This document shows positions 5,303-37,862 of a stretch of 47,315 nucleotides of DNA, in pieces. Origin of the DNA: an uncultured Caldisericota bacterium. Its GTDB lineage: Bacteria > Caldisericota > Caldisericia > UBA6126. The number at the start of each line of letters is the position of its first letter. The stretch's first letter is position 1. The notes under the pieces were generated by a model. It searched no databases. It saw nothing but the letters and a program-made list of their open reading frames with translations, and was not told where the DNA came from. The DNA lies in NCBI GenBank assembly GCA_964422555.1, contig CAYRBR010000004.1, positions 1-47,315 of the forward strand, read 5' to 3'. Position numbers and translations under genes: made by a program.

Positions 5303-5346
5303 AAATAAAAGGTATTTTTTTGGACCAGTACCTAAAAGGAGGCATT

Positions 5347-8300
5347 ATGGATTCGTTACCAATTGAAGCAAGAGAAGAATTGATAAAGCAGTTTGGTGAT
5401 CATAAGTTTGTTAATTTCCAACCCACTGAACGTATCATTTATTCCCATGATATGGGAGCATTGCCTCAAATCATAGATAAAATGATTAATACTGTACCTA
5501 AAGCCGTTGTCCGAGTGAGAAACAAAGAAGATATTGCGTTTCTGGTTTCCTTTTCTAAACGTCATAAAGTTCCTTTAACACCAAGGGGGAATGCCACTTC
5601 AGGGTACGGTGACTCAATGCCATTTGGGAATGGGATAGCAGTAGATTTTATGTCAATGCGCTCCATTTTAGAATTAGATGTAAACAATCTAACCGTTACA
5701 ACTGAACCTGGGATTGTTTTTTGGTTGTTAGAAAGAGAATTAAACAAGAGTAACGTTGCATTACGCGTATATCCTTCGAGTGCCCCAGGTGCTACGGTAG
5801 CAGGATGGATAGGCGAAGGCGGATCAGGTATCGGTAGTTATAAATATGGATATTTCCGAGAGAACGTTGTTTCTGTTGAAGCAATCCTTATGAATGGGGA
5901 AACAAGAATTTTTACAGGAAAAGACTTAGACCTAATCTATTCCTCTCAAGGAACAACAGGATTAATTACCAAAGTAACCATGAAAATACGTAAAAAACTG
6001 CCTATTACACCTTTTGCATTCCACTTTAAAGAACCCGAAGAATACCAGTCTTTTCTTATCGAACTCGCAAAACATGAAGCTTCTGTATATTCGATCAATT
6101 GTTTTCTTGGAGAAAGTCTGCATCGAAAATTCCAGGCGTTACAAGATAGTCAGGGTATTCCATTTTCAATCTATCACAACCAAACAAATACCTCTCATTT
6201 TTCCATTCACGACTATGAAATCGATCACCAGGGAGTATATGCTGTAATTGCTTTAGAAAACAATCTTACAGGGAAACAGTTAAAAACTGTGGCTTCGGAA
6301 TTTCATGGTACTTTACAAAACAATACCTTATCTACTTTTCTGTGGGATGAACGTTTTTATCCTATGAGAGAAAAACGCTTAGGTCCCTCACTAATACCAA
6401 GTGAAGCCATTGTTTCTGTTAAAGAACTTACGAATATATGCCTGGAATCGAAAGAAAAAATCCCAACCTTATCCATGGAAGGCACGCTAGTTAATAAGGA
6501 TGAAATTGTTCTCTTGGGTTTTGTTCTTCATGATGAGAGAACTTTTTCCTTTGCTGTCGATTTTGTTAAATCACTTACATTAATGTCCATAATTGAAAAA
6601 TATGGTGGTCGTCTTTACCAAGTTGGAGTATTCTTTACCGATAAAGCTGAACAAATTAAGGGAAAAGAAACATTACAGAAGCTTCGAGCATTTAAAACAC
6701 AAACTGATCCCCTTAATCTTCTAAACCCTGGGAAACTCTTCCCTTCGAAAGAAATACCATCGCTTGTAAAGATTGCGATGAAAGCAGGTCAAAGTGGGCA
6801 ATCTCTTTCAGCTATGGTATCTAATGTATTAAGTAGATTTCCCCAGTTGAAGAAAAAAGATGTCAATACTATTGCCCATGAAGCATTTGCTTGTGCACAA
6901 TGTGGCTACTGTAAACTGGTTTGTTCCGAGTTTTTTGGAAATGGGTGGGAAAGTTCTGCCCCCAGAGGTAAATTCTATTTTCTCAGAGAGTATTTCCGTG
7001 GAAATCAGGAATTCGATGATTATTTGAAAGACGAGTTTTTGCTCTGTACCACTTGCAAAAAATGCAATTATGTTTGTCAGGTCAATATTCCTATTCAAGA
7101 AAAATGGGACGACATGCGCGGTTTACTAGTACATGACAAAAAGATGGGTACTTTTCCTGCATTCGAAATGATGGGAGGTAGCTGGGAGCAAGCTCTAAAT
7201 ATTTGGACTGGAAGGAAAAATGAACGGTCAGATTGGTTTCCAGAACCCTCAAAAATAGATTTGTCAAATCCATTAAACTATTGGGCAGGATGTACTGCAT
7301 CTTATGTAGAGACCGATATTGGAATAAACTCTATTCGAATCCTTAATGAAGGGAATGTATCGTACCAATATTTGGGCAACGAGGAATCTTGTTGTGGAAT
7401 TCCCTTCTTTATGGCAGGAAAATGGGATACTTTTGAAAAAGTAGTACGATATAACATTGACACTTTTCAAAAACATAATATTACACAAATAGTAACCTCA
7501 TGCCCTGGATGCTGGGTTGCTTTAAATCATTATTATCGAGCATGGGCTAAGAAACTTGGTATTCCTTATAATATTCAGGTTTTTCATATCACAGAACTTG
7601 CGTCCAAACTAATAGAAGAAGGCAAGATAAAAGTGAATCATCTACCAGGTAAGATAACGTATCATGATCCGTGCCACATTGGTAGACATGGAAAAATTTA
7701 TGATGAACCCAGAACCATATTGAAGAATATTGCTGGGAATAATTATGTAGAAATGGAACATAACCGTGACGAAGGTCTTTGCTGTGGAAGCGTTTTAACT
7801 CGCATTTATAAACCAGATATGTCTGATCGAATAGCGGATGTTCGCTTGTGCGAAGCAGAAGATCAAGAAGCTGAAGAAATGGTTACAAATTGTCCCTGCT
7901 GTGAATTCCAGTTTCGTGTTGCTGCCAAGAACCTGGGAAAAGACATTAAAGTTACTGATATTGCTACTTATCTAACCAGGGCTATGGGATTACCTGAATC
8001 TCCTGATCCGAATCCCATGGTTTATAAAATGTGGAATGTTTTTCTTGCTGCCATAACAATGATGACACCAGAAGGTATACGAGAAATGATGAAGGATATG
8101 TTTCCTTCTATGATTGAAGCTATGCCCGATACCTATAAAACAATGACAGAGTCGGTTCTAAAAATGGCTCTTCCGTTGCGGACACCCATGGCAAATGCAT
8201 TTGAAAAAATGCTTCCCATGTTAATGCCAAGACTTCTACCTGATATGCTACCAAAACTAGCCCCTGAGATTCAACAAATAATGGAAGAGCGAATGCCGGA

Positions 8301-8436
8301 TATGCCCGATTCTATGAAAGAAATGTTACCCTCTATTCTACCATCTGTTATGGATCGTGTAATGAAGAGTTTATTACCTCATGTTTCTAAAGGAATAGCC
8401 GTTGATTTTAAGGAATACTTACTTTCACAACCATAA
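5347..8436 (+). CDS. FAD-binding/4Fe-4S/CCG-domain oxidoreductase (GlcD + GlcF/GlpC-like fusion; possible alpha-hydroxy acid dehydrogenase)
   Basis: ATG 5347 after AAAGGAGG. FAD_binding_4-type PRGNATS and GGSG. Two ferredoxin motifs (CAQCGYCKLVC, CTTCKKCNYVC). CCG motifs (ESCCG, SCPGC, YHDPCH, LCCG, NCPCC). Met/Pro tail. Confidence 0.88.
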   Translation: MDSLPIEAREELIKQFGDHKFVNFQPTERIIYSHDMGALPQIIDKMINTVPKAVVRVRNKEDIAFLVSFSKRHKVPLTPRGNATSGYGDSMPFGNGIAVDFMSMRSILELDVNNLTVTTEPGIVFWLLERELNKSNVALRVYPSSAPGATVAGWIGEGGSGIGSYKYGYFRENVVSVEAILMNGETRIFTGKDLDLIYSSQGTTGLITKVTMKIRKKLPITPFAFHFKEPEEYQSFLIELAKHEASVYSINCFLGESLHRKFQALQDSQGIPFSIYHNQTNTSHFSIHDYEIDHQGVYAVIALENNLTGKQLKTVASEFHGTLQNNTLSTFLWDERFYPMREKRLGPSLIPSEAIVSVKELTNICLESKEKIPTLSMEGTLVNKDEIVLLGFVLHDERTFSFAVDFVKSLTLMSIIEKYGGRLYQVGVFFTDKAEQIKGKETLQKLRAFKTQTDPLNLLNPGKLFPSKEIPSLVKIAMKAGQSGQSLSAMVSNVLSRFPQLKKKDVNTIAHEAFACAQCGYCKLVCSEFFGNGWESSAPRGKFYFLREYFRGNQEFDDYLKDEFLLCTTCKKCNYVCQVNIPIQEKWDDMRGLLVHDKKMGTFPAFEMMGGSWEQALNIWTGRKNERSDWFPEPSKIDLSNPLNYWAGCTASYVETDIGINSIRILNEGNVSYQYLGNEESCCGIPFFMAGKWDTFEKVVRYNIDTFQKHNITQIVTSCPGCWVALNHYYRAWAKKLGIPYNIQVFHITELASKLIEEGKIKVNHLPGKITYHDPCHIGRHGKIYDEPRTILKNIAGNNYVEMEHNRDEGLCCGSVLTRIYKPDMSDRIADVRLCEAEDQEAEEMVTNCPCCEFQFRVAAKNLGKDIKVTDIATYLTRAMGLPESPDPNPMVYKMWNVFLAAITMMTPEGIREMMKDMFPSMIEAMPDTYKTMTESVLKMALPLRTPMANAFEKMLPMLMPRLLPDMLPKLAPEIQQIMEERMPDMPDSMKEMLPSILPSVMDRVMKSLLPHVSKGIAVDFKEYLLSQP

Positions 8437-8469: not shown

Positions 8470-8913
8470 TTAGTTATAGGCTATTCTCAATTCTTCGGTT
8501 ACAAGAGTATCCTGTAGTATTTCTTTCCATTTTGGATCATGCCAAGTATTCAGTTTTGAATGCATTAAAAAATATTTCTGAGGAATGGGGTGGGTTCCAT
8601 ATACAACTTCTACCTGGAATCGCTCTTCTATGAAGCGTTTGAAGTAATCTACAGAGGGACATGGTGGATAGCCTACCAAAAATCCAGTGGCTAAATGTAC
8701 AATCGTTGCTCCGTTTTTTTTCATTTCTTCCACTGCATATTCGATGTTTCCACCAGGGCAACCTTCACAAGTAGTATAGCCAACGATTTCTACATCTTGA
8801 TTTTTGTATCTTGCAAAAGCGCCTTCTCTTTTTTGAAGAGAAGAAAAACACTTCCCCCCTGCACATCTTTGAGATCGATCATAAATAAAAAGGCATATTT
8901 TAGTGGTATCCAA
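8470..8913 (-). CDS. CGGC domain protein (putative metal/Fe-S binding)
   Basis: RCAGGKC, TCEGCPGG, HLATG...YPPCP, VYGTH pattern. TTG start at 8913 after AAGGAG (track starts at 8985). Confidence 0.85.
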   Translation of the reverse strand: MDTTKICLFIYDRSQRCAGGKCFSSLQKREGAFARYKNQDVEIVGYTTCEGCPGGNIEYAVEEMKKNGATIVHLATGFLVGYPPCPSVDYFKRFIEERFQVEVVYGTHPIPQKYFLMHSKLNTWHDPKWKEILQDTLVTEELRIAYN

Positions 8914-9017
8914 GCTGATCTCCTTTAGCGAAAGAATAGTAAAATCATTGCAGTAACAAGTAAATATGTGTAGTATAATAACCATAGAACTGTATGCAAA
9001 TGCAAGGAGATCCTACA

Positions 9018-9929: not shown

Positions 9930-11081
9930 ATGAAATATAGAACAATATGCGATACAATGCCCGAAGTTTCAATTCTTGGTTTTGGTTGTATGCGCTTTTA
10001 CCGAAAAGATGGAACTCTTGACCTTATGAGCTCAGATAAACCAGTTGACACAAACCTTGTGGATACTCTTATTAACACAGCCTTAGAAAGAGGGATTAAC
10101 TATTTCGATACAGCCTATACCTATCTTGGTGGAATGAGTGAATCAATTCTGGGTTCTATTTTGCAGGGACACAAACGGCAACAATCCTTTATTGCCACAA
10201 AACTACCAGCATGGAAGGTAAAAGAAACCGACGATTTTGAGCGATTTCTTCATGAACAACTAAAACGACTTCAAACCGACTGTATTGATTACTATTTAGT
10301 ACATAGTCTTTCGGGTAAAACATGGAAACAGGTATATGATCTTGGCATTCTACCTTTTTTAGATGCAATTAAAAAAGCAGGTAAAGTTCGAGCAATCGGT
10401 TTTTCATTTCATGATTTGTACTCCTCTTTTGAACCAATCTTAGATGCTTATCCATGGGACTTTTGCCAAATTCAATACAATTATTTGGATACACAATACC
10501 AGGCGGGGAGAAAAGGACTGTTAAAAGCTCACGAAAAAGGAGTAGGAGTAATCTCCATGGAACCTCTTTTAGGGGGAAAGCTAGCTACACAATTGCCCAC
10601 CGAAGCAGTTTCTCTATTACAGAAAAAGAATCCTGACATGACTCCTGCTGAATGGGCACTACGCTGGGTTTGGAATCACCCACAAATTGCACTGCTACTA
10701 AGTGGAATGAACCAGTTAGATCAATTAAATGAAAATTGTACAATTGCCGACTCCGCTGATGTAGCTGCTATGTCAAAAGAGGAAATGGTAACGATTCAGG
10801 AGGTAAAGCAAATATTTGATGAACGTATAAAAGTTCACTGTTCTGGTTGTGCCTATTGTATGCCCTGTCCCCATGGAGTAAACATTCCTCGAGTATTTGC
10901 ATTATACAATGAAGCATATCGTTTTGATAACCCAGAGTCGGCTGTATGGCAATACAATTCCATGCCTACCGAAAAAAGAGCTTCAGCTTGTGTGGCTTGC
11001 AACGAGTGCCTTTCTAAATGCCCCCACCAACTCCCGATCTCTGCATTAATGAAGGACATCTCGGATACCTTTAAAAGCTAA
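9930..11081 (+). CDS. Aldo/keto reductase with C-terminal 4Fe-4S dicluster
   Basis: LGFGCMR, YFDTAYTY, IATKLP, YLVH. C-terminal CSGCAYCMPC and CVACNECLSKC. Confidence 0.93.
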   Translation: MKYRTICDTMPEVSILGFGCMRFYRKDGTLDLMSSDKPVDTNLVDTLINTALERGINYFDTAYTYLGGMSESILGSILQGHKRQQSFIATKLPAWKVKETDDFERFLHEQLKRLQTDCIDYYLVHSLSGKTWKQVYDLGILPFLDAIKKAGKVRAIGFSFHDLYSSFEPILDAYPWDFCQIQYNYLDTQYQAGRKGLLKAHEKGVGVISMEPLLGGKLATQLPTEAVSLLQKKNPDMTPAEWALRWVWNHPQIALLLSGMNQLDQLNENCTIADSADVAAMSKEEMVTIQEVKQIFDERIKVHCSGCAYCMPCPHGVNIPRVFALYNEAYRFDNPESAVWQYNSMPTEKRASACVACNECLSKCPHQLPISALMKDISDTFKS

Positions 11082-16131: not shown

Positions 16132-16183
16132 GAGAAAGTAATATATAGTTTCATCAAAAGATAGACTTTTGTTGGGGGTTACA

Positions 16184-17149
16184 ATGATTCAAAATCAGTG
16201 GTATGTTGTTCTATCGTCCGATCAAGTCAAGAATAAACCAGTTGGTGTAACACGACTTGGCGAAAAGATGGTTTTTTGGCGTACAAAAGATACACACATT
16301 CATTGCATGGCAGATAGATGTATTCATCGCGGAGCTTCTCTTTCAAAAGGACAGGTAAAGAATAATCGATTACAATGCCCATTTCATGGATTTGAATACA
16401 ATACCACAGGCAAAGTACAGGTGATACCAGCAAATGGCAAATCAACAATTGTTGAAGACCAATATCGTGTTAAAGCCTATGAGTGCTTTGAAAAAGCTGG
16501 TTTTATATGGGTTTGGTGGAATCCTGCAGAACTCGAGAATCCAAAAACTCTGCAGGAACCTGAGTTTTTTTCGGATTTCCTATCGATGGAGTACGGACAA
16601 AAAATAGATCCATGGAACGCCCATTACTCAAGGGTTATTGAAAACCAACTCGATGTTGTTCACCTGCCTTTTGTTCACTACAACACAATAGGCAGGGGAA
16701 ACAAAACGGTTGTTGATGGACCAATCGTTAAGTGGATGAACAAAAACCGATTTAAGGTGTTTGTTCACAACCAAGTTGATAAAGGACAAAAACCTCTACA
16801 AGAAAAAGAAATCCCCTTGTCAGAAGTTCCTGTATATTTAGATTTCATCTTTCCTAATCTTTGGCAAAACCACATTTCTGATACAATTCGTGTTTCTGCT
16901 GCTTTTGTTCCTGTTGATGAAAATAATACGTTGCTTTATCTTCGGTACTACATGAAAAAGAATTTCTTCAGCAAGATTGCTGTAAAGCTATCTTCTCCTT
17001 CCATGCTAGTTATTGCCCATCAAGATAGAAGAATTGTTGAAACACAGATTCCCAAAAAAAGCTCTTATAAGAGCCAGGAAAAGCTTATAAAAGGAGACTC
17101 TCCTATAGTAAATTATCGGAAAAGGAGAAATGAACTTAAAGCATTATAA
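16184..17149 (+). CDS. Rieske non-heme iron oxygenase alpha subunit (VanA-like)
   Basis: Rieske CIH...CPFH, mononuclear-Fe segment ENQLDVVHLPFVH, C-terminal QD. ATG 16184. Confidence 0.9.
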   Translation: MIQNQWYVVLSSDQVKNKPVGVTRLGEKMVFWRTKDTHIHCMADRCIHRGASLSKGQVKNNRLQCPFHGFEYNTTGKVQVIPANGKSTIVEDQYRVKAYECFEKAGFIWVWWNPAELENPKTLQEPEFFSDFLSMEYGQKIDPWNAHYSRVIENQLDVVHLPFVHYNTIGRGNKTVVDGPIVKWMNKNRFKVFVHNQVDKGQKPLQEKEIPLSEVPVYLDFIFPNLWQNHISDTIRVSAAFVPVDENNTLLYLRYYMKKNFFSKIAVKLSSPSMLVIAHQDRRIVETQIPKKSSYKSQEKLIKGDSPIVNYRKRRNELKAL

Positions 17150-31735: not shown

Positions 31736-33565
31736 CTAGGCATACATAACAAGAAACATCACAAACACAAGCAATGAAACAATAGCTGCGATACCAATTA
31801 TAATTTTCCCCCATTTTGTAACCACAAAGCTGTAAACATAAGCATTTTTCTGATCTTCTTTGTCAGTTTTTGTAACAAGCACAAGAAGTTCTTTTTTAAT
31901 AAATACCCACATCTTGTCAATATTTCTTTCAATCACATCTGTTTTTTTTTCAATCCAATCCGAAATAGTTCTTTTTCCAGGAATTAATTTATTACCAGCT
32001 CGATCAATCACACAATCCAATCCATTGCATTCGTTTGTGATACACTTGCATCGATCAGGTGCAAACCCGGGCCAGTATTTGTCAATTCTCTGGCAGGAAA
32101 CAAACCAGGGGCTAACAAAAAATGTAATGATCCTGTTATTAAGGGTAAAAATCAAAGTCTCCAACTTCATTAAATACTTGCTTAGAAAATGATTCCACTG
32201 CCCATACACCACAAACCACCAGCAAAGAGGTGTCCATTCGTATGGAATTACAATGTGAAACCATCCCTTTTTTATTCCAACCGCAATCAACACAACTCCT
32301 GCAACAAGAATCCACAAAAAAGAAATAGCTGAATGACTAAAAGCATGATGACCTATCTGAAAACTCTCTAACAGATGCACTGAAGTGGCTTCTTTTGGGA
32401 GAAATGTTTCGTACAGTAATGGGAAACAACCAAAGACAAGAATGAGGATTGCTAGTATTCCTAATGGAATAATCTCACGCCAGTCAAAACGTAATTGATA
32501 TTTCTTTTGCATAGATCTGAAAGAGGTTAGATAGAACATTTTAAAATTCGATGCAAAAGTACCTACTGCTGTCAAGAGAAAAATAGCTTCCATAAAAATG
32601 AAAGCAATGGAACAGTGCTCAACAAGAGTTTCATGCAATGCGTTTTTAGAAACAAAACCATTTGTAAACGGGACACCTGAAATCCCCATTACTGCCACCA
32701 GAAATAGAATTGCCACCAACCACTTCTTTTTCAATAAACCTCGAATAGAATACATATCCAAAGTACTAAAATAAACAACCATTACACCCGCAGCAATAAA
32801 GAGGGCAGACTTAAACCAGGCATGATTCACTGCATGCAATATAGAACCCATTAATGCATCTTGTTGCTGGAAAGCGATAAATAGTGCTAATCCCATTAGA
32901 ATATATCCCATCTGAGAAACACTATGATACGCCAACATTCGCTTCATGTTTGATTGAGTTAGTGCTTGTAAAACACCATAAAACATAGTAATAGCAGCAA
33001 TGACTAGCAAAATAATACCATATATACTAGGTAATTGCACCAGTAAAACCGTTTGTAAAAGTCCAAAAAAACCGATTTTTATAATGCATCCAGATAGAAT
33101 AGCAGAAGCGGGAGATGGGGCTACAGGATGAGCTTCCGGTAACCATATATGAAATGGATATCCACCTGCTTTAATCAAAAAACCCACACCCATTAGAGTT
33201 GCTCCTAAAATGGGGTTATACGCTAGTTGAGCAAACATTACTCCGGCCAGCACCAGAACTCCACTTAAAAGAGAAAAGAAGAAGTACAATTTTGCAGCTC
33301 TATACGAAGATTTTATACGCTCCTGCAAAATTAATGGAAAACTCACCAAAGATACAATTTCATATACCACAAATAAAGTAAACAGGTTGGAAGAAAAGAA
33401 TAAGAGTACATTCCCAGCAAAAGTAAGACAAAAGAAAATGTAAAACTCTCTTTTTCTAGCATGTACATATTTAAAGGCAAACAGCAAAGAAGCAACATAA
33501 GGAGGAATCGTAAGGAGCAGAAATATAAAAGTATAAGAAGTAAAAGAAAACGATATTGGTAGCAT
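31736..33565 (-). CDS. Complex I/Mrp antiporter-like membrane subunit (HyfB/MrpD type) with C-terminal extension
   Basis: YE, IKAG, HIWLPEAHP, IKIG, KRMLAYHSVSQMG, NHAWFKS, GFVSK. Confidence 0.88.
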   Translation of the reverse strand: MLPISFSFTSYTFIFLLLTIPPYVASLLFAFKYVHARKREFYIFFCLTFAGNVLLFFSSNLFTLFVVYEIVSLVSFPLILQERIKSSYRAAKLYFFFSLLSGVLVLAGVMFAQLAYNPILGATLMGVGFLIKAGGYPFHIWLPEAHPVAPSPASAILSGCIIKIGFFGLLQTVLLVQLPSIYGIILLVIAAITMFYGVLQALTQSNMKRMLAYHSVSQMGYILMGLALFIAFQQQDALMGSILHAVNHAWFKSALFIAAGVMVVYFSTLDMYSIRGLLKKKWLVAILFLVAVMGISGVPFTNGFVSKNALHETLVEHCSIAFIFMEAIFLLTAVGTFASNFKMFYLTSFRSMQKKYQLRFDWREIIPLGILAILILVFGCFPLLYETFLPKEATSVHLLESFQIGHHAFSHSAISFLWILVAGVVLIAVGIKKGWFHIVIPYEWTPLCWWFVVYGQWNHFLSKYLMKLETLIFTLNNRIITFFVSPWFVSCQRIDKYWPGFAPDRCKCITNECNGLDCVIDRAGNKLIPGKRTISDWIEKKTDVIERNIDKMWVFIKKELLVLVTKTDKEDQKNAYVYSFVVTKWGKIIIGIAAIVSLLVFVMFLVMYA

Positions 33566-35082
33566 TAGAAAAGGTGTGGGCAAGATCCAATAGGAATAAG
33601 TGTGGAAATTATATCACGACAAAATGCTAAAATAGGATCTGGGACGATACCAAACGCAAGAATGATTAGAGAAAGAGCAATCATAGTTATAGAAACGGTA
33701 ATAGGAGTTTTATATCGTTTTATGTCAGTCGCACCCTCTTCCACTTCTTGTGGTTCTTGAAACCATCCCTGAATAATAATAGGAAGATAATACAAGGCAT
33801 TTAGAATACTACTGAAAAGAAGAATCCCTATGGCAATTCCACCAATCCATGGCTGAATATATCCAAGCTGTATAGCCTCAATAGCTCCTACACCTAATGC
33901 CCACTTGGTAATAAAATTGGCAAAAAGAGGGAATCCTATCATTGATAAAGCTCCAATTGTGAATCCTGCAAAGACGATAGGCGATTTACGACCAAATCCT
34001 GCATACTTTGTTACATCGGATGTATCAGACTGTTGAATCATAGTTCCTGCAGACATAAATAGTAAAGATTTAACCATTGAATGAGCAAGAGCGTGAAGAA
34101 TAGCACCCAACAATCCTATGGGAGATAGTAACATTGCTCCCATAGTTATATAGCCCATTTGACTAACACTCGAGTAGGCAAGCATGCGTTTTATGTGTTT
34201 TTGTCCAATTGCAATAGCCGAACCCCAAAACATAGTAAACACAGCAATAAACAAAAGAATGATTACAGAAGTGTTCCCAATTAGGTTACAGACACCAAAG
34301 GTTTCCAGAACCATTCGAAGGATTCCTATTACTCCTGCTTTAATGACCATTCCCGACAACAATGCTGAAGCAGGTGATGGAGCTACTGGATGAGCTTCTG
34401 GTAACCATATATGAACTGGGAACAAACCAGCTTTGATTGCAAAAGCAATGATAAACCCCCAGAAAATAACAGGAAAAAAGACAGAAGAAGTAAGAGTTGC
34501 ATACCCACCTGGCACAAAAGAAGTAGTACCAATCACTGAGTATTGCACCATAATAGCCATTAAAAAGAAAAGCCCACCGATGATCTGAAAAAACACATAT
34601 CGAAGACCCGCAGCATACGTTTCAGGTTTCTGATAATGGATTATCAAGACATATGATACAACAAGCAACAATTCAAAGAAAATAAAAAAAGTAACCCAAT
34701 TGTCTGCATTAAAAATAAGCATAATGCAATACAGATTGAGCATTGAAAAAGTTTGGTACCGTTGTATGTTCTTGCTTTTTTCTTGGGGAAAATAGTGAAT
34801 GGAATAAAGAGAAGAAAATAACCAAACCAACAGCAGAAAAAAGGAAGTAATCCAGGCAAATTTGTCAAGGTTAAAGGATAGATGAAAGGGACCATGATTT
34901 GCCAGGGTAATAATTGGACTTGTAGTTGTTGCTTGTGGATAAAGAAATAGAAGAATAATAAAAAGTATGGCAACAAAAACAAATGTTACTGATCCATATA
35001 ATGAAGGTTTGTGCTTTTTAATTGCAAGCAATACAGCAACAAATAGAATTGGACATGTTAGCCAAATAGTATATAGTTCCAT
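33565..35082 (-). CDS. Complex I/Mrp antiporter-like membrane subunit (MrpD type)
   Basis: FE, IKAG, HIWLPEAHP, VIKAG, KRMLAYSSVSQMG, AHSMVKS, FITKW. ATG 35082 after AAGGGGTG. Confidence 0.9.
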   Translation of the reverse strand: MELYTIWLTCPILFVAVLLAIKKHKPSLYGSVTFVFVAILFIILLFLYPQATTTSPIITLANHGPFHLSFNLDKFAWITSFFLLLVWLFSSLYSIHYFPQEKSKNIQRYQTFSMLNLYCIMLIFNADNWVTFFIFFELLLVVSYVLIIHYQKPETYAAGLRYVFFQIIGGLFFLMAIMVQYSVIGTTSFVPGGYATLTSSVFFPVIFWGFIIAFAIKAGLFPVHIWLPEAHPVAPSPASALLSGMVIKAGVIGILRMVLETFGVCNLIGNTSVIILLFIAVFTMFWGSAIAIGQKHIKRMLAYSSVSQMGYITMGAMLLSPIGLLGAILHALAHSMVKSLLFMSAGTMIQQSDTSDVTKYAGFGRKSPIVFAGFTIGALSMIGFPLFANFITKWALGVGAIEAIQLGYIQPWIGGIAIGILLFSSILNALYYLPIIIQGWFQEPQEVEEGATDIKRYKTPITVSITMIALSLIILAFGIVPDPILAFCRDIISTLIPIGSCPHLF

Positions 35083-35199
35083 AAAACACCCCTTACACCT
35101 TGATAGCAATTCTATTATAGTGAGACATTCTTACAAAAAAAGAAAAAAAAGAAAATTTTCATTATACTATTTGTAATTTACTGACAATTGGAGGGTATT

Positions 35200-35433
35200 A
35201 TGGTTTCTAAAGGTTATGTTTTATTAGAAGCACAGGCAGGTAAAACTGAAGAAGCATTAAACAAAATCAGACAAATTAAAGGCGTAAAAGAAGTTGACTT
35301 GGTAACAGGTCCATATGATTTAATCATCAATATAGAAGCCGATGACCTGAAGCAACTCGGACAAATTGTCAGCGATGAAATTCAGGTCATCGGCGGAGTG
35401 ACAAAAACAATTACTTGTGTTGTTATCGGCTAA
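35200..35433 (+). CDS. Stand-alone Lrp/AsnC ligand-binding (RAM) domain protein
   Basis: VTGPYDLII, GVTKTIT, no HTH. ATG 35200 after GGAGGG. Confidence 0.85.
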   Translation: MVSKGYVLLEAQAGKTEEALNKIRQIKGVKEVDLVTGPYDLIINIEADDLKQLGQIVSDEIQVIGGVTKTITCVVIG

Positions 35434-36020
35434 TGAAACGCTTTCACACCTTCATCAAAGGCTCGTAAATTTAGCTCAACAAAACGAGGTTTTACGAGTT
35501 CTTTGATGGATTTTTTCAGTTCTTCTTCAGAAAATGGACAGGAAGGAATCTGAGAGAAGGAACCTAGAATTACCATGTTCAAGGAAATGATTCCACCAGC
35601 TTCAACAGCAGCTTTTGATGCATCTGTTGCAACAATATTATCACTAATTCTATGCAATTCTTCTGTAATCCTATCAAACTCAGGATAGGTTGCTAGCCCA
35701 GTGTTAACAGAAGTTGGAATCAACGGATGACTATTTAAAACAATGTAGGCATCTTTTTTCAAATAATTCATATATCGTAAGCTTTCGACCGGTTCAAATG
35801 CCAACATGCAATCGCCATGTCCTTCGGGAGTTAAAGCACCAAAGACTTCAGTTCCCATTCGAACATGTGAGATTACTGTCCCACCTCTTTGAGACATGCC
35901 GTGCGTTTCTCCAACACGAACATTGATTGAGTTTCGAATAGCAGTTTGAGCAATAATTTTGGAGGCTAGAACAGTTCCTTGTCCACCAACACCACACATT
36001 ACAATGTTAAATTCTTTCAT
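35430..36020 (-). CDS. iorB: Indolepyruvate:ferredoxin oxidoreductase beta subunit
   Basis: GVGGQG, ETHGMSQRGGTV, NMVILG. Confidence 0.93.
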   Translation of the reverse strand: MKEFNIVMCGVGGQGTVLASKIIAQTAIRNSINVRVGETHGMSQRGGTVISHVRMGTEVFGALTPEGHGDCMLAFEPVESLRYMNYLKKDAYIVLNSHPLIPTSVNTGLATYPEFDRITEELHRISDNIVATDASKAAVEAGGIISLNMVILGSFSQIPSCPFSEEELKKSIKELVKPRFVELNLRAFDEGVKAFH

Positions 36021-37862
36021 TTATTGCTCCTTTCCTTCGTGTATTGCACCAACTGGACATACTTCTGTGCAAGCATTACAGCCATTGCATAAATTCAAAT
36101 CAACAATAGGATGCTTCAAATTTTCTTCCCATATTAAAGCAGGACAAGAAAACTTTGAAGTACAAATTTTACAACCGATACAAACATCTGGATCAATTGT
36201 AACAGGAAGTTTCTTTTCATACCCTTTCAGCATACAGCAAGGAGCACGTGAAACGATAAAAGTAGGTCCTTCATCATAGGCTGCTGCTTCTTTGAAAACT
36301 TCAATTGATTCTTTAATTTTAAGAGGGTCAATAACTCGAATAAACTTAACACCCAAAGCTTTTGCTACTTTCTCAGGATAGATTGGAGCATCGTGTTCTC
36401 CAAACACTGAGTTCAAACCACAGCTTGGATTTGGTTGTTGTCCGGTCATAGCAGTAATAGAATTATCCACCAAAACGATATTTACATTGGACTTGTTCCA
36501 AACTGCATTCACTAAAGCGGGAATACCAGTATGGAAAAAAGTAGAATCACCAATAGTTGCAAAAATGCTCTCTTTGTTAAAATGTGCCAATGCAGCTCCA
36601 ACTCCAATTGAACCGCCCATACATACACAAGTATCAACAGCATTTAATGGTGGTTGAATACCCAAGGTGTAACACCCAATATCACTGGGATATATTCCCT
36701 TAGGATCCGCTTTTTTAATGGCATAAAATGTAGATCTATGAGGACATCCAGGGCATAAAACCGGGAATCGGGGTGGCATAAGAGAAGTATCTGGTAAAGA
36801 AACACCTTCGCATGCAACAGTAGGTTCTTTCTTGATTGCTTTCATGATTGCATCATGAACGATACCGGTATTAAACTCATATGTCTTTGGTAAGATGTCT
36901 TTGCCATGAATTTTGATTTGGACTCCATTGTCGAAAGCAAGTCGTTTCAGAGTCTCTTCAGTAATAGGATCCAACTCTTCAACAACTAATATAGTGTCGC
37001 AATGCTGAAGCATCTTTAACATCGTTTTTTCAGGTAAGGGATATGTGATTCCAAGATGTAAGAAACTTACATCTTCTAAGTTTTCATAGTACAGGGCTTC
37101 TTTGACATAGTTTCCTGTCAGACCGTTTGCAATAATCCCAAATTTCCCTTTTAAAGATAGGCGAGTCCACGGAGAATCACAAATATAATCTTTTAATTCA
37201 TCAAATCGCTGAATTAAATCAGGATGTAATTGGTAGGCATGAGAGGGAAGAACAGCTTTATGAAGCTTATCTTTCACAAAGTTTACTTCGTTACGTGTTT
37301 CAGGAATTGAGTTATACTCAACGTTACCGGAACAATGAGCACTACGAGTTGTTTGTCGTAACAATACTGGTAATCTGAATTTTTCAGAAAGCTCAAATCC
37401 ATATTTTACCATATCTTTTGTTTCTTGTGGAGAAGAAGGCTCTAAACAAGGAAACATACCAAAACGACAATAGTTTCGACTATCTTGTTCGTTTTGTGAT
37501 GAAAAACAGGATGGATCATCTCCAACGGCTAAAATTAATCCAGCAACAGATCCACCGTATGTCATTGACATTAAAGCATCTGCTGCAACATTGATTCCAA
37601 CATGTTTCATTGCAACAATTGATCTGTGATTAGACCAACTACCTGCAAGAGCTGTTTCAAATGCTACTTTCTCATTAGTGGAATACTCCCAATAATATGA
37701 ATTTGCAGCAACAGCAAATTTGGCAAACGTATCTCCAATTTCGGAAGCTGGAGTACCAGGATACGTACATGCAACTCCAACTCCTGCTTCTAAAGCACCT
37801 CGAACTACTGCCTGGTTACCCATTAACAGTTCTACTATTCCGGGTTTGTTATCTAATAGCAT
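36021..37862 (-). CDS. iorA: Indolepyruvate:ferredoxin oxidoreductase alpha subunit
   Basis: YPGTPASE, NEKVA, MKHVG, LCPGCPHR, DIGCY, TPP motif GDST...DN, two C-terminal 4Fe-4S motifs. Confidence 0.96.
   Translation of the reverse strand: MLLDNKPGIVELLMGNQAVVRGALEAGVGVACTYPGTPASEIGDTFAKFAVAANSYYWEYSTNEKVAFETALAGSWSNHRSIVAMKHVGINVAADALMSMTYGGSVAGLILAVGDDPSCFSSQNEQDSRNYCRFGMFPCLEPSSPQETKDMVKYGFELSEKFRLPVLLRQTTRSAHCSGNVEYNSIPETRNEVNFVKDKLHKAVLPSHAYQLHPDLIQRFDELKDYICDSPWTRLSLKGKFGIIANGLTGNYVKEALYYENLEDVSFLHLGITYPLPEKTMLKMLQHCDTILVVEELDPITEETLKRLAFDNGVQIKIHGKDILPKTYEFNTGIVHDAIMKAIKKEPTVACEGVSLPDTSLMPPRFPVLCPGCPHRSTFYAIKKADPKGIYPSDIGCYTLGIQPPLNAVDTCVCMGGSIGVGAALAHFNKESIFATIGDSTFFHTGIPALVNAVWNKSNVNIVLVDNSITAMTGQQPNPSCGLNSVFGEHDAPIYPEKVAKALGVKFIRVIDPLKIKESIEVFKEAAAYDEGPTFIVSRAPCCMLKGYEKKLPVTIDPDVCIGCKICTSKFSCPALIWEENLKHPIVDLNLCNGCNACTEVCPVGAIHEGKEQ

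Follow-up and report, generated by a model that had tools for sequence, protein, structure and literature searches.

CCG-domain iron-sulfur modules are among the commonest redox units of anaerobes, and how those that lack a membrane subunit pass electrons to their acceptor is a question on which the present locus bears. In the window, by which is meant the whole 47,315-nucleotide stretch of DNA analysed, from an uncultured Caldisericota bacterium, a predicted dehydrogenase continues past its last CCG domain into a tail with an extreme methionine and proline content, and it may be asked whether this tail is a low-complexity appendage or a domain and, if a domain, what it does for the enzyme. 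The gene and its parts are as follows:

5320-8436, forward strand: whole gene, predicted FAD / 2x[4Fe-4S] / 2xCCG dehydrogenase in one polypeptide, with a Met/Pro-rich C-terminal domain
5497-6738, forward strand: FAD-linked oxidase module, comprising FAD_binding_4 (aa 60-196) and a cap/FAD-oxidase_C-like part to ~aa 473
6883-7089, forward strand: ferredoxin-like domain for two [4Fe-4S] clusters (aa 522-590; Fer4_8/Fer4_17)
7282-7917, forward strand: two CCG (HdrB/HdrD-type cysteine-rich) domains (aa ~655-740 and 779-866; PF02754)
7996-8433, forward strand: Met/Pro-rich C-terminal domain (aa 893-1038), predicted to be all-helical, delimited from residue counts, column conservation and AF2

The open reading frame comprises 1038 residues when counted from TTG at 5320, and the database copy 1029 residues counted from ATG at 5347, which is likely the true start. 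The AF2 model of the full-length protein has a pLDDT of 92.8 and a pTM of 0.92. The flavin module was identified as an FAD-linked oxidase of the VAO/PCMH type by its match to PF01565 (E=4.7e-30, 104.5 bits against a cutoff of 26.4), with a weak additional match to PF02913 (17.3 bits, Pfam), and Foldseek aligned it with mouse LDHD (8jdv/8jde) at a TM(target) of 0.82-0.84; the fold is that of a D-2-hydroxyacid (D-lactate) dehydrogenase-like protein. Cys 516/519/522/526 and 567/570/573/577 of the ferredoxin-like domain (numbering of the 1029-residue database copy) are invariant, as are the CCG and CxxC/CPCC cysteines of the following region, which matches PF02754 in two stretches (E=1.6e-31, 108.7 bits), so that all cluster cysteines are retained. 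Two CxxCxxCxxxC motifs followed by two CCG domains give the iron-sulfur portion the layout of HdrD/GlpC/GlcF-type proteins, and the order FAD_binding_4, FAD-oxidase_C, 2x[4Fe-4S], 2xCCG is shared with fusions of the Dld-II and YdiJ type, in which HdrD/GlpC/GlcF/TfrB/LdhH modules are joined to GlcD/D-lactate-dehydrogenase-like flavoproteins. The NCBIfam equivalog cutoffs were missed for glcD (98 against 567.9 bits), YdiJ (72.7 against 1350), TfrB (158.4 against 385) and LdhH (154.1 against 800). A sequence search of the PDB matched residues 571-886 to 9ojn (E=1.4e-25), which we take to be mycobacterial EtfD. The protein has no signal peptide and no transmembrane segment, the highest 19-residue mean Kyte-Doolittle value being 1.18 overall and 0.87 within the tail. 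The tail has a hydrophobic moment of 0.2-0.5 at a mean hydrophobicity of 0-0.36, with a mean charge of ~0. The enzyme is a cytoplasmic, stand-alone FAD/[4Fe-4S]x2/CCGx2 dehydrogenase, with the tail as its family-defining C-terminal domain.

The 102 residues from nucleotide 8059 (M914) contain exactly 21 Met and 14 Pro, as counted in the first-pass annotation, and the two strings quoted there, EKMLPMLMPRLLPDMLPKL and ERMPDMPDSMKEMLPSILPSVM, are present in the translation from this position. Over residues 1-900 the Met content is 2.6% and the Pro content 4.6%; finding at least 21 Met among 102 residues has a binomial probability of 1.6e-13, and finding at least 14 Pro one of 2e-4. The 26 other open reading frames of the window (10,120 residues) reach a maximum of 9 Met per 102-residue stretch. 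No tandem repeat was found at the DNA level. The extension after the CCG domains, first put at about 125 residues, is real and longer than proposed, at about 145 residues, since the conserved domain begins at approximately E893 (nucleotide 7996), ahead of nucleotide 8059, and includes the invariant W905 (nucleotide 8032). The TfrB and LdhH profiles stop at residues 885-888, with TfrB, LdhH, GlpC and GlcF together ending between residues 866 and 888; proteins of the GlcF, GlpC, TfrB and LdhH types stop directly after the second CCG domain, as had been anticipated for typical relatives, and no HdrD/GlpC/GlcF/TfrB/LdhH-type profile includes a 145-residue domain. Across the family the tail averages 18.2% Met (range 13-26%) and 12.9% Pro, with a mean net charge of -0.3 (range -8 to +8) and approximately 0.17 Cys (0.1%) and 1 His (0.7%) per tail.

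Modelled in isolation, the tail gave a pLDDT of 94.6 and a pTM of 0.85, with six helices matching those of the full-length model, in which the tail section has a pLDDT of 91-96; structure prediction, proposed as a check in the first-pass annotation, gave a fold with high confidence for the tail alone and in the full protein. On these models the tail is predicted to be an autonomously folding, elongated six-helix bundle with the following elements:

8011-8163, forward strand: four short helices, aa 898-914, 917-926, 928-934 and 937-948 (DSSP on AF2 models)
8170-8292, forward strand: long helix 5, aa 951-991, bearing a proline ladder
8308-8427, forward strand: long helix 6, aa 997-1036, with the same P-x-h-h periodicity as helix 5

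The short-helix region carries the invariant W905, the near-invariant F908 and the conserved M924, P929 and P936 (column counts). The ladder of helix 5 consists of P966, P970, P974, P978 and P982 (nucleotides 8215-8265) in the pattern P-x-h-h, and the helix 6 region contains the near-invariant M995, M999, P1004, P1008, M1011 and M1015. Helices 5 and 6 align with each other (hhalign probability 95%, E=3.5e-8), and the two ~40-residue helices, forming a hairpin after the four short ones, look like an internal duplication. On the helices, methionine fills the i/i+4 stripes of hydrophobic positions, with a proline at every fourth residue next to the polar stripe; PxxxP motifs number 7.3 per tail, compared with 2.3 in shuffled sequences, and MxxxM, which has helical spacing, is enriched 2.4-fold. 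In the Met-rich columns, 93.5% of replacements are hydrophobic (L/I/A/V/F), and the tail methionine is acting as a hydrophobic residue. In the long helices, hydrophobic residues take up about half of the positions.

Of the 120 homologues listed, 118 are complete at the C terminus, and every one of these keeps the tail, at 37-64% identity, so the worry that it might be unconserved among homologues fell away. In the homologue alignment M976 joins F908, the five ladder prolines, M924, M995, M999 and M1011 as invariant or nearly so, and in five Met columns conservation reaches 90% or more. Relatives occur in the genomes of at least 593 species from more than 10 phyla, Methanoperedens included, as counted by a scan that used full-length alignment, and the extra, unnamed domain always sits at the CCG end of the electron wire. 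The best 80 loci carry the tail, because their matches run through query residue 1011-1029. A profile of the tail alone, run exhaustively against 1.84e9 representatives, found the domain only at the C terminus of the FAD/Fe-S/CCG architecture and in fragments of that architecture, with no free or otherwise fused copies. Short "proteins" resembling free-standing tails proved to be internal-Met starts, contig-edge fragments or pieces of frameshifted full-length genes. A word-index search of a 5.8e9-protein database with the tail alone returned no match, a tool artefact that is no evidence of uniqueness, since phmmer with the same query retrieves all 118 homologues (the closest listed at E=6e-43, for a database size of 5.8e9). 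The description of the tail as low-complexity, degenerate repeats gives way to that of a confidently folded, autonomous six-helix domain whose Pro and Met are conserved column by column, and nothing suggestive of disorder was seen that would favour a condensate tag. The tail is, with little doubt, a conserved, folded, family-specific domain, which deserves a domain-family entry at minimum and illustrates that an extreme Met/Pro composition can signal a structured domain instead of low complexity.

That no named domain corresponds to the tail, as first supposed, agrees with searches of Pfam, NCBIfam, PDB sequences and Foldseek, all of which were empty or sub-threshold. Foldseek of the tail model gave no PDB match at E<=10, and no structural match was obtained in BFVD; PF07849 (DUF1641) was absent from the Pfam matches at E<=1, and neither the SRP54 M domain nor any other named Met-rich domain was among the Pfam and NCBIfam matches at E<=1. 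The sub-threshold similarities were to Cnd1 (E=0.015, 15.8 bits against 26.4) and HEAT_EF3_N in Pfam, and to the HEAT proteins PP2A-A (E=0.012), CAND1 and importin-9 in PDB sequence profiles. The tail comprises two mutually alignable units of ~43 residues, each predicted as one long helix, and the HEAT/ARM matches all lie below threshold. A literature search found no Met-rich domain on CCG or FAD enzymes, and nothing under the accessions of the Thermincola and Carboxydothermus homologues.

Among the readings of what the tail does, a quinone-access module ranks first: tentatively, the tail may be an acceptor-access or membrane/quinone-interface module at the distal CCG cluster end. From the substrate flavin, electrons would travel via both cubane clusters and arrive at the non-cubane CCG clusters, which would be the distal, acceptor-facing end, as in HdrD-type modules. 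Placed directly after the second CCG domain, the Met-lined domain would cap this end and present a pliable hydrophobic surface or pocket, giving the enzyme access to a lipophilic acceptor, of which menaquinone at the surface of the membrane would be the likeliest; it would also stand in cis for the separate subunits of relatives, namely the HdrE/EtfD-type cytochrome b or the DUF1641 "helical membrane plugin" (HMP). Contact between the tail and the CCG module is itself inferred, from nothing more than the high pTM of the whole model. The CCG end would be the far end of the wire because the centres of EtfD are ordered CCG clusters, cubanes, heme b, menaquinone (PMC13083937). The absence of a transmembrane segment and of a partner gene counts for the acceptor-interface reading, no recurrent membrane, cytochrome or ETF gene and no conserved partner being found among 83 loci. 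On the same side are the conservation and exclusivity of the domain, its confident fold, the hydrophobic behaviour of its methionines and the precedent of the all-helical accessory proteins described below. Several observations count against it. Amphipathic helices on anionic bacterial membranes are usually basic, and the tail is on average near-neutral in charge; long helices that are half hydrophobic are also what a self-packed bundle needs, which weakens the case for an exposed greasy surface. Thermotogae, Dehalococcoidaceae and Bipolaricaulia are also among the labels of the MAGs that carry the family, and many members of these lineages lack quinones, which tells against a quinone acceptor, as the lack of sequence or fold likeness to DUF1641/HMP tells against an acceptor interface. 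Should the acceptor/quinone interface be correct, the enzyme would provide a compact single-polypeptide system for studies of CCG-to-acceptor coupling.

Two known systems are instructive here. The Fe-S/CCG core of mycobacterial EtfD and HdrDE is homologous to that of the present enzyme, as the 9ojn match indicates, and EtfD likewise has additional sequence past the second CCG domain. EtfD reaches menaquinone via five transmembrane helices and heme b, and the last ~30 kDa of its sequence are disordered and show little conservation (PMC13083937), whereas the present enzyme has no transmembrane segment or heme domain and its C-terminal domain is folded and conserved. The HMP (DUF1641/PF07849) proteins ForE, HucM and YjlC are all-helical accessory proteins, without transmembrane segments, that link soluble Fe-S or flavin oxidoreductases to menaquinone (PMC8808070, PMC13433803), a role parallel to that proposed for the tail. 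They are separate subunits arranged in tetrameric tubes, whereas the tail is part of the enzyme polypeptide; the HMP papers do not call them Met- or Pro-rich (PMC8808070, PMC13433803), the word "methionine" occurring 0 times in PMC13433803, and the parallel would be a functional analogy only. It is unlikely, but conceivable, that the tail is a hitherto undescribed equivalent of the helical membrane plugin, built into the enzyme, a Met-lined, proline-curved helical hairpin which, alone or oligomerised, would act as a hydrophobic conduit bringing menaquinone, or some other lipophilic acceptor, straight to a non-cubane CCG cluster. Such a conduit would explain how CCG enzymes without the subunit couple to the membrane pool (the GlpC/GlcF/SdhE problem) and its fold would be a new one for membrane-free access to quinone.

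The closest competitor to the acceptor interface, itself doubtful, is a module for protein-protein docking or oligomerisation through a plastic "methionine-bristle" surface, with a partner such as a thiol/disulfide carrier protein, ferredoxin, ETF or a second copy of the enzyme, and with the SRP54 M domain, calmodulin and HEAT-type scaffolds as analogues. The SRP54 M domain and the calmodulin lobes are helical, with flexible Met side chains lining a hydrophobic surface, and the tail shares this pattern of Met on a helix face; there is no sequence match, a groove would be hypothetical, and neither analogue, unlike the tail, has a proline ladder. A docking role agrees with a tail that is charge-neutral and well folded, with weak database resemblances exclusively to helical-repeat scaffolds, and with the presence of the family in lineages thought to lack quinones; moreover, HdrB-type CCG sites are classically disulfide-acting and not quinone-acting (PMC13083937). 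The surroundings of the gene differ among the window, Thermincola and the other loci, and the sole recurring neighbour, adjoining the enzyme upstream in 22 of the 83 loci and also cited for docking, is an ArsR-family gene with sub-threshold similarity to BigR. Against docking stand the lack of any partner gene conserved beside the enzyme in the 83 loci and the fact that every scaffold resemblance is under its family threshold.

A protective cap or antioxidant shield over the solvent-exposed, oxygen-labile non-cubane clusters, in which surface Met would be sacrificial and repaired by Met-sulfoxide reductase, appears improbable. It would suit anaerobic hosts with O2-sensitive CCG clusters and a Met density that is extreme throughout the family, and cluster shielding has been suggested by the EtfD authors as a possible oxygen adaptation (PMC13083937). 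The strict Pro/Met positions and the i/i+4 pattern, however, point to packing or binding and not to bulk scavenging, and in homologues that retain the domain, Leu, Ile or Phe stands at many of the Met columns.

More improbable still is a soft-metal domain binding or sensing Cu(I)/Ag(I) through thioether ligands, the "Cu/Ag-binding Met sink" of the first-pass annotation. The Met richness with its five highly conserved columns, the upstream gene read as an ArsR/SmtB-family metalloregulator, an HMA-type ATPase-like open reading frame close by in 4 of the 83 loci and Ni/Co uptake genes near the Thermincola copy would all be in keeping with it. The Met substitutions are nevertheless overwhelmingly hydrophobic, Cys and His are scarce, and MxM is depleted (0.61 observed against 4.7 expected) and MxxM barely enriched (6.1 against 4.7), the enriched spacing being MxxxM. 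The tail does not fit the pattern of Ctr1, CusF and CopA/PcoA-type Met motifs (MxM/MxxM clusters, often with His, and invariant Met ligands in loops or beta structure), as AF2 places its Met in regular helices rather than in loops. Copper sites built from Met are usually found in oxidising or periplasmic compartments, and this protein has neither signal peptide nor transmembrane segment; the ArsR neighbour is generic and missing from the window. That the tail is a low-complexity or disordered extension without function, or an artefact of annotation or of a frameshift, as the biased composition and the empty word-index search might have suggested, is effectively refuted by the tool-related origin of that empty result, in-frame conservation across phyla, the confident AF2 models and the lack of a DNA tandem repeat.

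Phage tape-measure proteins were considered as homologues of the tail and rejected. The alignments reached E values of 1e-17 to 1e-7 in many overlapping stretches, against 0.01-8 for HEAT proteins, and ran in one direction only, from the tail profile to repeat regions, the query itself lacking PhageMin_Tail and TMP_3. The targets are Met-poor (1-4%) and space their prolines by 11 residues as opposed to 4, and the genomic context of the gene is cellular and not phage. Because the matches fall in many overlapping registers, the likeness is one of periodicity and not of homology: the "xxLPxhhxxhh" repeats of tape-measure proteins and HEAT-type repeats have a hydrophobic/Pro periodicity in common with the tail profile.

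At its C terminus the dehydrogenase of the Caldisericota contig carries a folded domain that has no name, is strictly conserved and is the defining feature of a very widespread FAD/Fe-S/CCG dehydrogenase family. The gene and its domains are arranged as follows (residues in ORF numbering).

Window 5320..8436, + strand: dehydrogenase ORF, 1038 aa from TTG, with the tail at its 3' end
aa 60-196: FAD_binding_4 (Pfam)
Weak match: FAD-oxidase_C (Pfam)
aa 522-590: two-cluster ferredoxin domain (Pfam)
aa 779-866: second of two CCG domains (Pfam)
aa 898-914, 917-926, 928-934, 937-948, 951-991 and 997-1036: six tail helices (AlphaFold2)

The public copy, of 1029 aa, begins at ATG 5347. The NCBIfam profiles of TfrB, LdhH, GlpC and GlcF reach their own C termini at dehydrogenase residues 866-888, and the extra module therefore starts at ~889-893; GlcF/GlpC-type relatives do end without it, as the first-pass annotation had stated. 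The equivalog scores are all far under cutoff, and no transmembrane segment was found in the dehydrogenase. The top PDB sequence match of the Fe-S/CCG part is 9ojn, which we take to be mycobacterial EtfD, and the FAD module superposes on D-lactate dehydrogenases with a TM(target) of 0.82-0.84. Despite this fold, the glcD equivalog covers only the FAD-binding part (aa 63-230) of the flavin module (window 5497-6738). An alignment of homologues contains no invariant His in the cap region of this module, so its substrate may be other than a classical D-2-hydroxyacid.

The 102 residues translated from nt 8059 contain 21 Met and 14 Pro, reproducing the first-pass count together with both of its quoted strings, although the module begins ~20 residues upstream of the start then assigned. 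By comparison, Met and Pro make up 2.6% and 4.6% of the first 900 residues (binomial probabilities of the excess 1.6e-13 and 2e-4, respectively), and the 26 other window ORFs have at most 9 Met in any 102-residue stretch. The DNA contains no tandem repeat, and the tail is therefore not a recent slippage product. Across the family, Met averages 18.2% of the tail, 7.4 times its share of the body, and Pro 12.9%; Cys is nearly absent, His is scarce and the mean net charge is ~0.

A full-length search returned >100 homologues of ~1000-1030 aa (37-64% identity, 96-99% coverage) from Bacillota (Thermincola, Carboxydothermus, Thermanaeromonas, and Phosphitispora), Actinomycetota, Planctomycetota, and many metagenomes. 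The prospect that the tail might be unconserved did not hold: the last 140 residues of every C-terminally complete homologue contain 18-38 Met. Column counts in the alignments revealed an invariant Trp905 and conserved positions at Phe908, Met924, Pro929, Pro936, and Pro950, followed by a proline ladder (Pro966/970/974/978/982) and, near the end, Pro993, Met995, Met999, Pro1004, Pro1008, Met1011, and Met1015. In a scan that took a single genome for each GTDB species, relatives turned up in at least 593 species, in lineages including Chloroflexota, Bacillota, Actinomycetota, Bipolaricaulota, Thermotogae, KSB1, Desulfobacterota, Zixibacteria, Aminicenantes, and Methanoperedens. In all of the 80 best loci the match extends through query residue 1011-1029 and therefore includes the tail. 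The closest relatives (60-64% identity) come from metagenomes only, the best GTDB species genome reaching 43%. One MAG labelled Thermotogae carries two tail-bearing paralogues (L014 and L019), and three proteins of 1088-1287 aa (P0065, P0069, and P0081) have a Ser/Gly/Ala-rich, probably disordered extension beyond the Met/Pro domain.

The full-length AlphaFold2 model, computed from a 115-sequence alignment, has a pLDDT of 92.8 and a pTM of 0.92 (tail pLDDT 91-96), and the six helices are unchanged when the tail is modelled alone (pLDDT 94.6, pTM 0.85). Modelled confidently in both settings, the tail is predicted to be an autonomous, elongated helical domain and not disordered; this fold and the conserved columns overturn its first-pass reading as low-complexity sequence. 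The original observation is confirmed, and its interpretation is supported in part. Both long helices follow a P-x-h-h pattern of period four and align with each other (hhalign probability 95%), which suggests an internal duplication. Foldseek found no PDB match for the tail and no significant one in a set of viral models; searching the PDB by sequence profile yielded HEAT-repeat proteins alone, all sub-threshold, in line with weak Pfam matches to Cnd1 and HEAT_EF3_N.

A word-indexed protein search with the tail as the only query (window 7975-8433) gave no match. This null is an artefact, because phmmer with the same query recovered all 118 homologues at full database size (closest E = 6e-43); nulls of the word-indexed method are untrustworthy for compositionally biased queries. 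An exhaustive search of 1.84e9 representatives with a profile built from 49 diverse tails gave 450 matches and no convincing case of a free-standing tail or of fusion to another enzyme. Strong matches were full-length family members or fragments arising from internal-Met starts, contig edges, or a frameshift-split gene. In the latter case (L086 1739-4399), located on a contig of 345 kb, gene calling splits the family gene into four successive ORFs (FAD_binding_4, FAD-oxidase_C, CCG, and tail). The cause is a frameshifted pseudogene or, alternatively, errors in long-read sequencing, and the tail ORF only mimics a free-standing protein. A second class of matches (E 1e-17 to 1e-7) comprised phage tape-measure proteins (PhageMin_Tail, TMP_3), including P0171, P0199, P0205, P0217, P0220, P0225, and P0228. 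Unlike the tail, these are Met-poor, with 11-residue 'xxLPxhhxxhh' helical repeats matched in many overlapping registers, and the similarity is read as shared Pro/hydrophobic periodicity rather than homology.

The electron wire of EtfD and HdrDE has its CCG clusters at the end remote from the membrane heme (PMC13083937). The present protein has its flavin domain at the N terminus, and the tail comes directly after the second CCG domain. Read most economically, if tentatively, the tail would cap the acceptor end of the wire, supplying a malleable hydrophobic surface to a lipophilic acceptor or the membrane and taking over in cis the role of separate coupling subunits. A precedent by analogy is offered by ForE, HucM, and YjlC, 'helical membrane plugin' proteins of the DUF1641 family that channel menaquinone to soluble oxidoreductases (PMC8808070, PMC13433803); the tail has no match to this family. 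Against such an interface, the tail is neutral in charge, a self-packed bundle would need the same hydrophobic content, and the family occurs in lineages often without quinones; we therefore hold this reading with restraint. Many members of Thermotogae, Dehalococcoidaceae and Bipolaricaulia lack quinones. A protein-docking or oligomerisation module is possible but doubtful; no recurrent membrane, cytochrome or ETF partner was found across 83 loci.

Methionine usage bears on the remaining alternatives. In the 37 tail columns with ≥30% Met, 93.5% of the non-Met residues are Leu, Ile, Ala, Val, or Phe, and only five columns reach ≥90% Met; a protective or antioxidant cap appears unlikely. Relative to shuffles, MxxxM is enriched 2.4-fold and PxxxP 3.2-fold, whereas MxM is depleted eightfold. 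Such a pattern marks Met as a hydrophobic residue on helix faces, not as a thioether metal ligand. Together with the scarcity of Cys and His and a cytoplasmic location, it argues against the Cu/Ag-binding Met sink first proposed, and a metal-binding domain is very unlikely. That so conserved a tail is functionless is barely credible.

The dehydrogenase gene stands alone. Its window neighbours encode an ABC-2 transporter, a CGGC protein, a GNAT protein, and an Fe-S aldo-keto reductase, and bear no relation to the neighbours in Thermincola and the closest metagenomic relatives. Genes of the window (36.6% G+C) include:

8470-8985, - strand: CGGC-domain protein, convergent with the dehydrogenase
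9930-11081, + strand: aldo-keto reductase with a C-terminal two-cluster ferredoxin domain
16169-17149, + strand: Rieske/VanA-type oxygenase
31736-35109, - strand: two Mrp/Nuo-type antiporter-like subunits
35430-37862, - strand: 2-oxoacid:ferredoxin oxidoreductase, two subunits

The sole recurrent neighbour, absent from the window, is an ArsR/SmtB-family HTH regulator, encoded ~30-400 bp directly upstream and in the same orientation at 22 of the 83 loci, mostly Chloroflexota.

Loci with the regulator: L006, L007, L020, L025, L026, L029, L032, L033, L039, L044, L048, L049, L051, L060, L064-L066, L069, L071, L074, L075, L077

These regulators are mostly 109-127 aa, with three longer calls of up to 238 aa, and belong by NCBIfam to the generic family, similarity to BigR, TsoR, and CmtR being sub-threshold. 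One subgroup has two Cys (ELCKTF...EACDLV) and presumably resembles BigR/SqrR-type thiol sensors. At 4 of the 83 loci, including L010 (1449-3680, - strand), an ORF with an HMA-like GMSCANC start lies near the family gene; these are candidate heavy-metal P-type ATPases, whose proximity may be due to chance.
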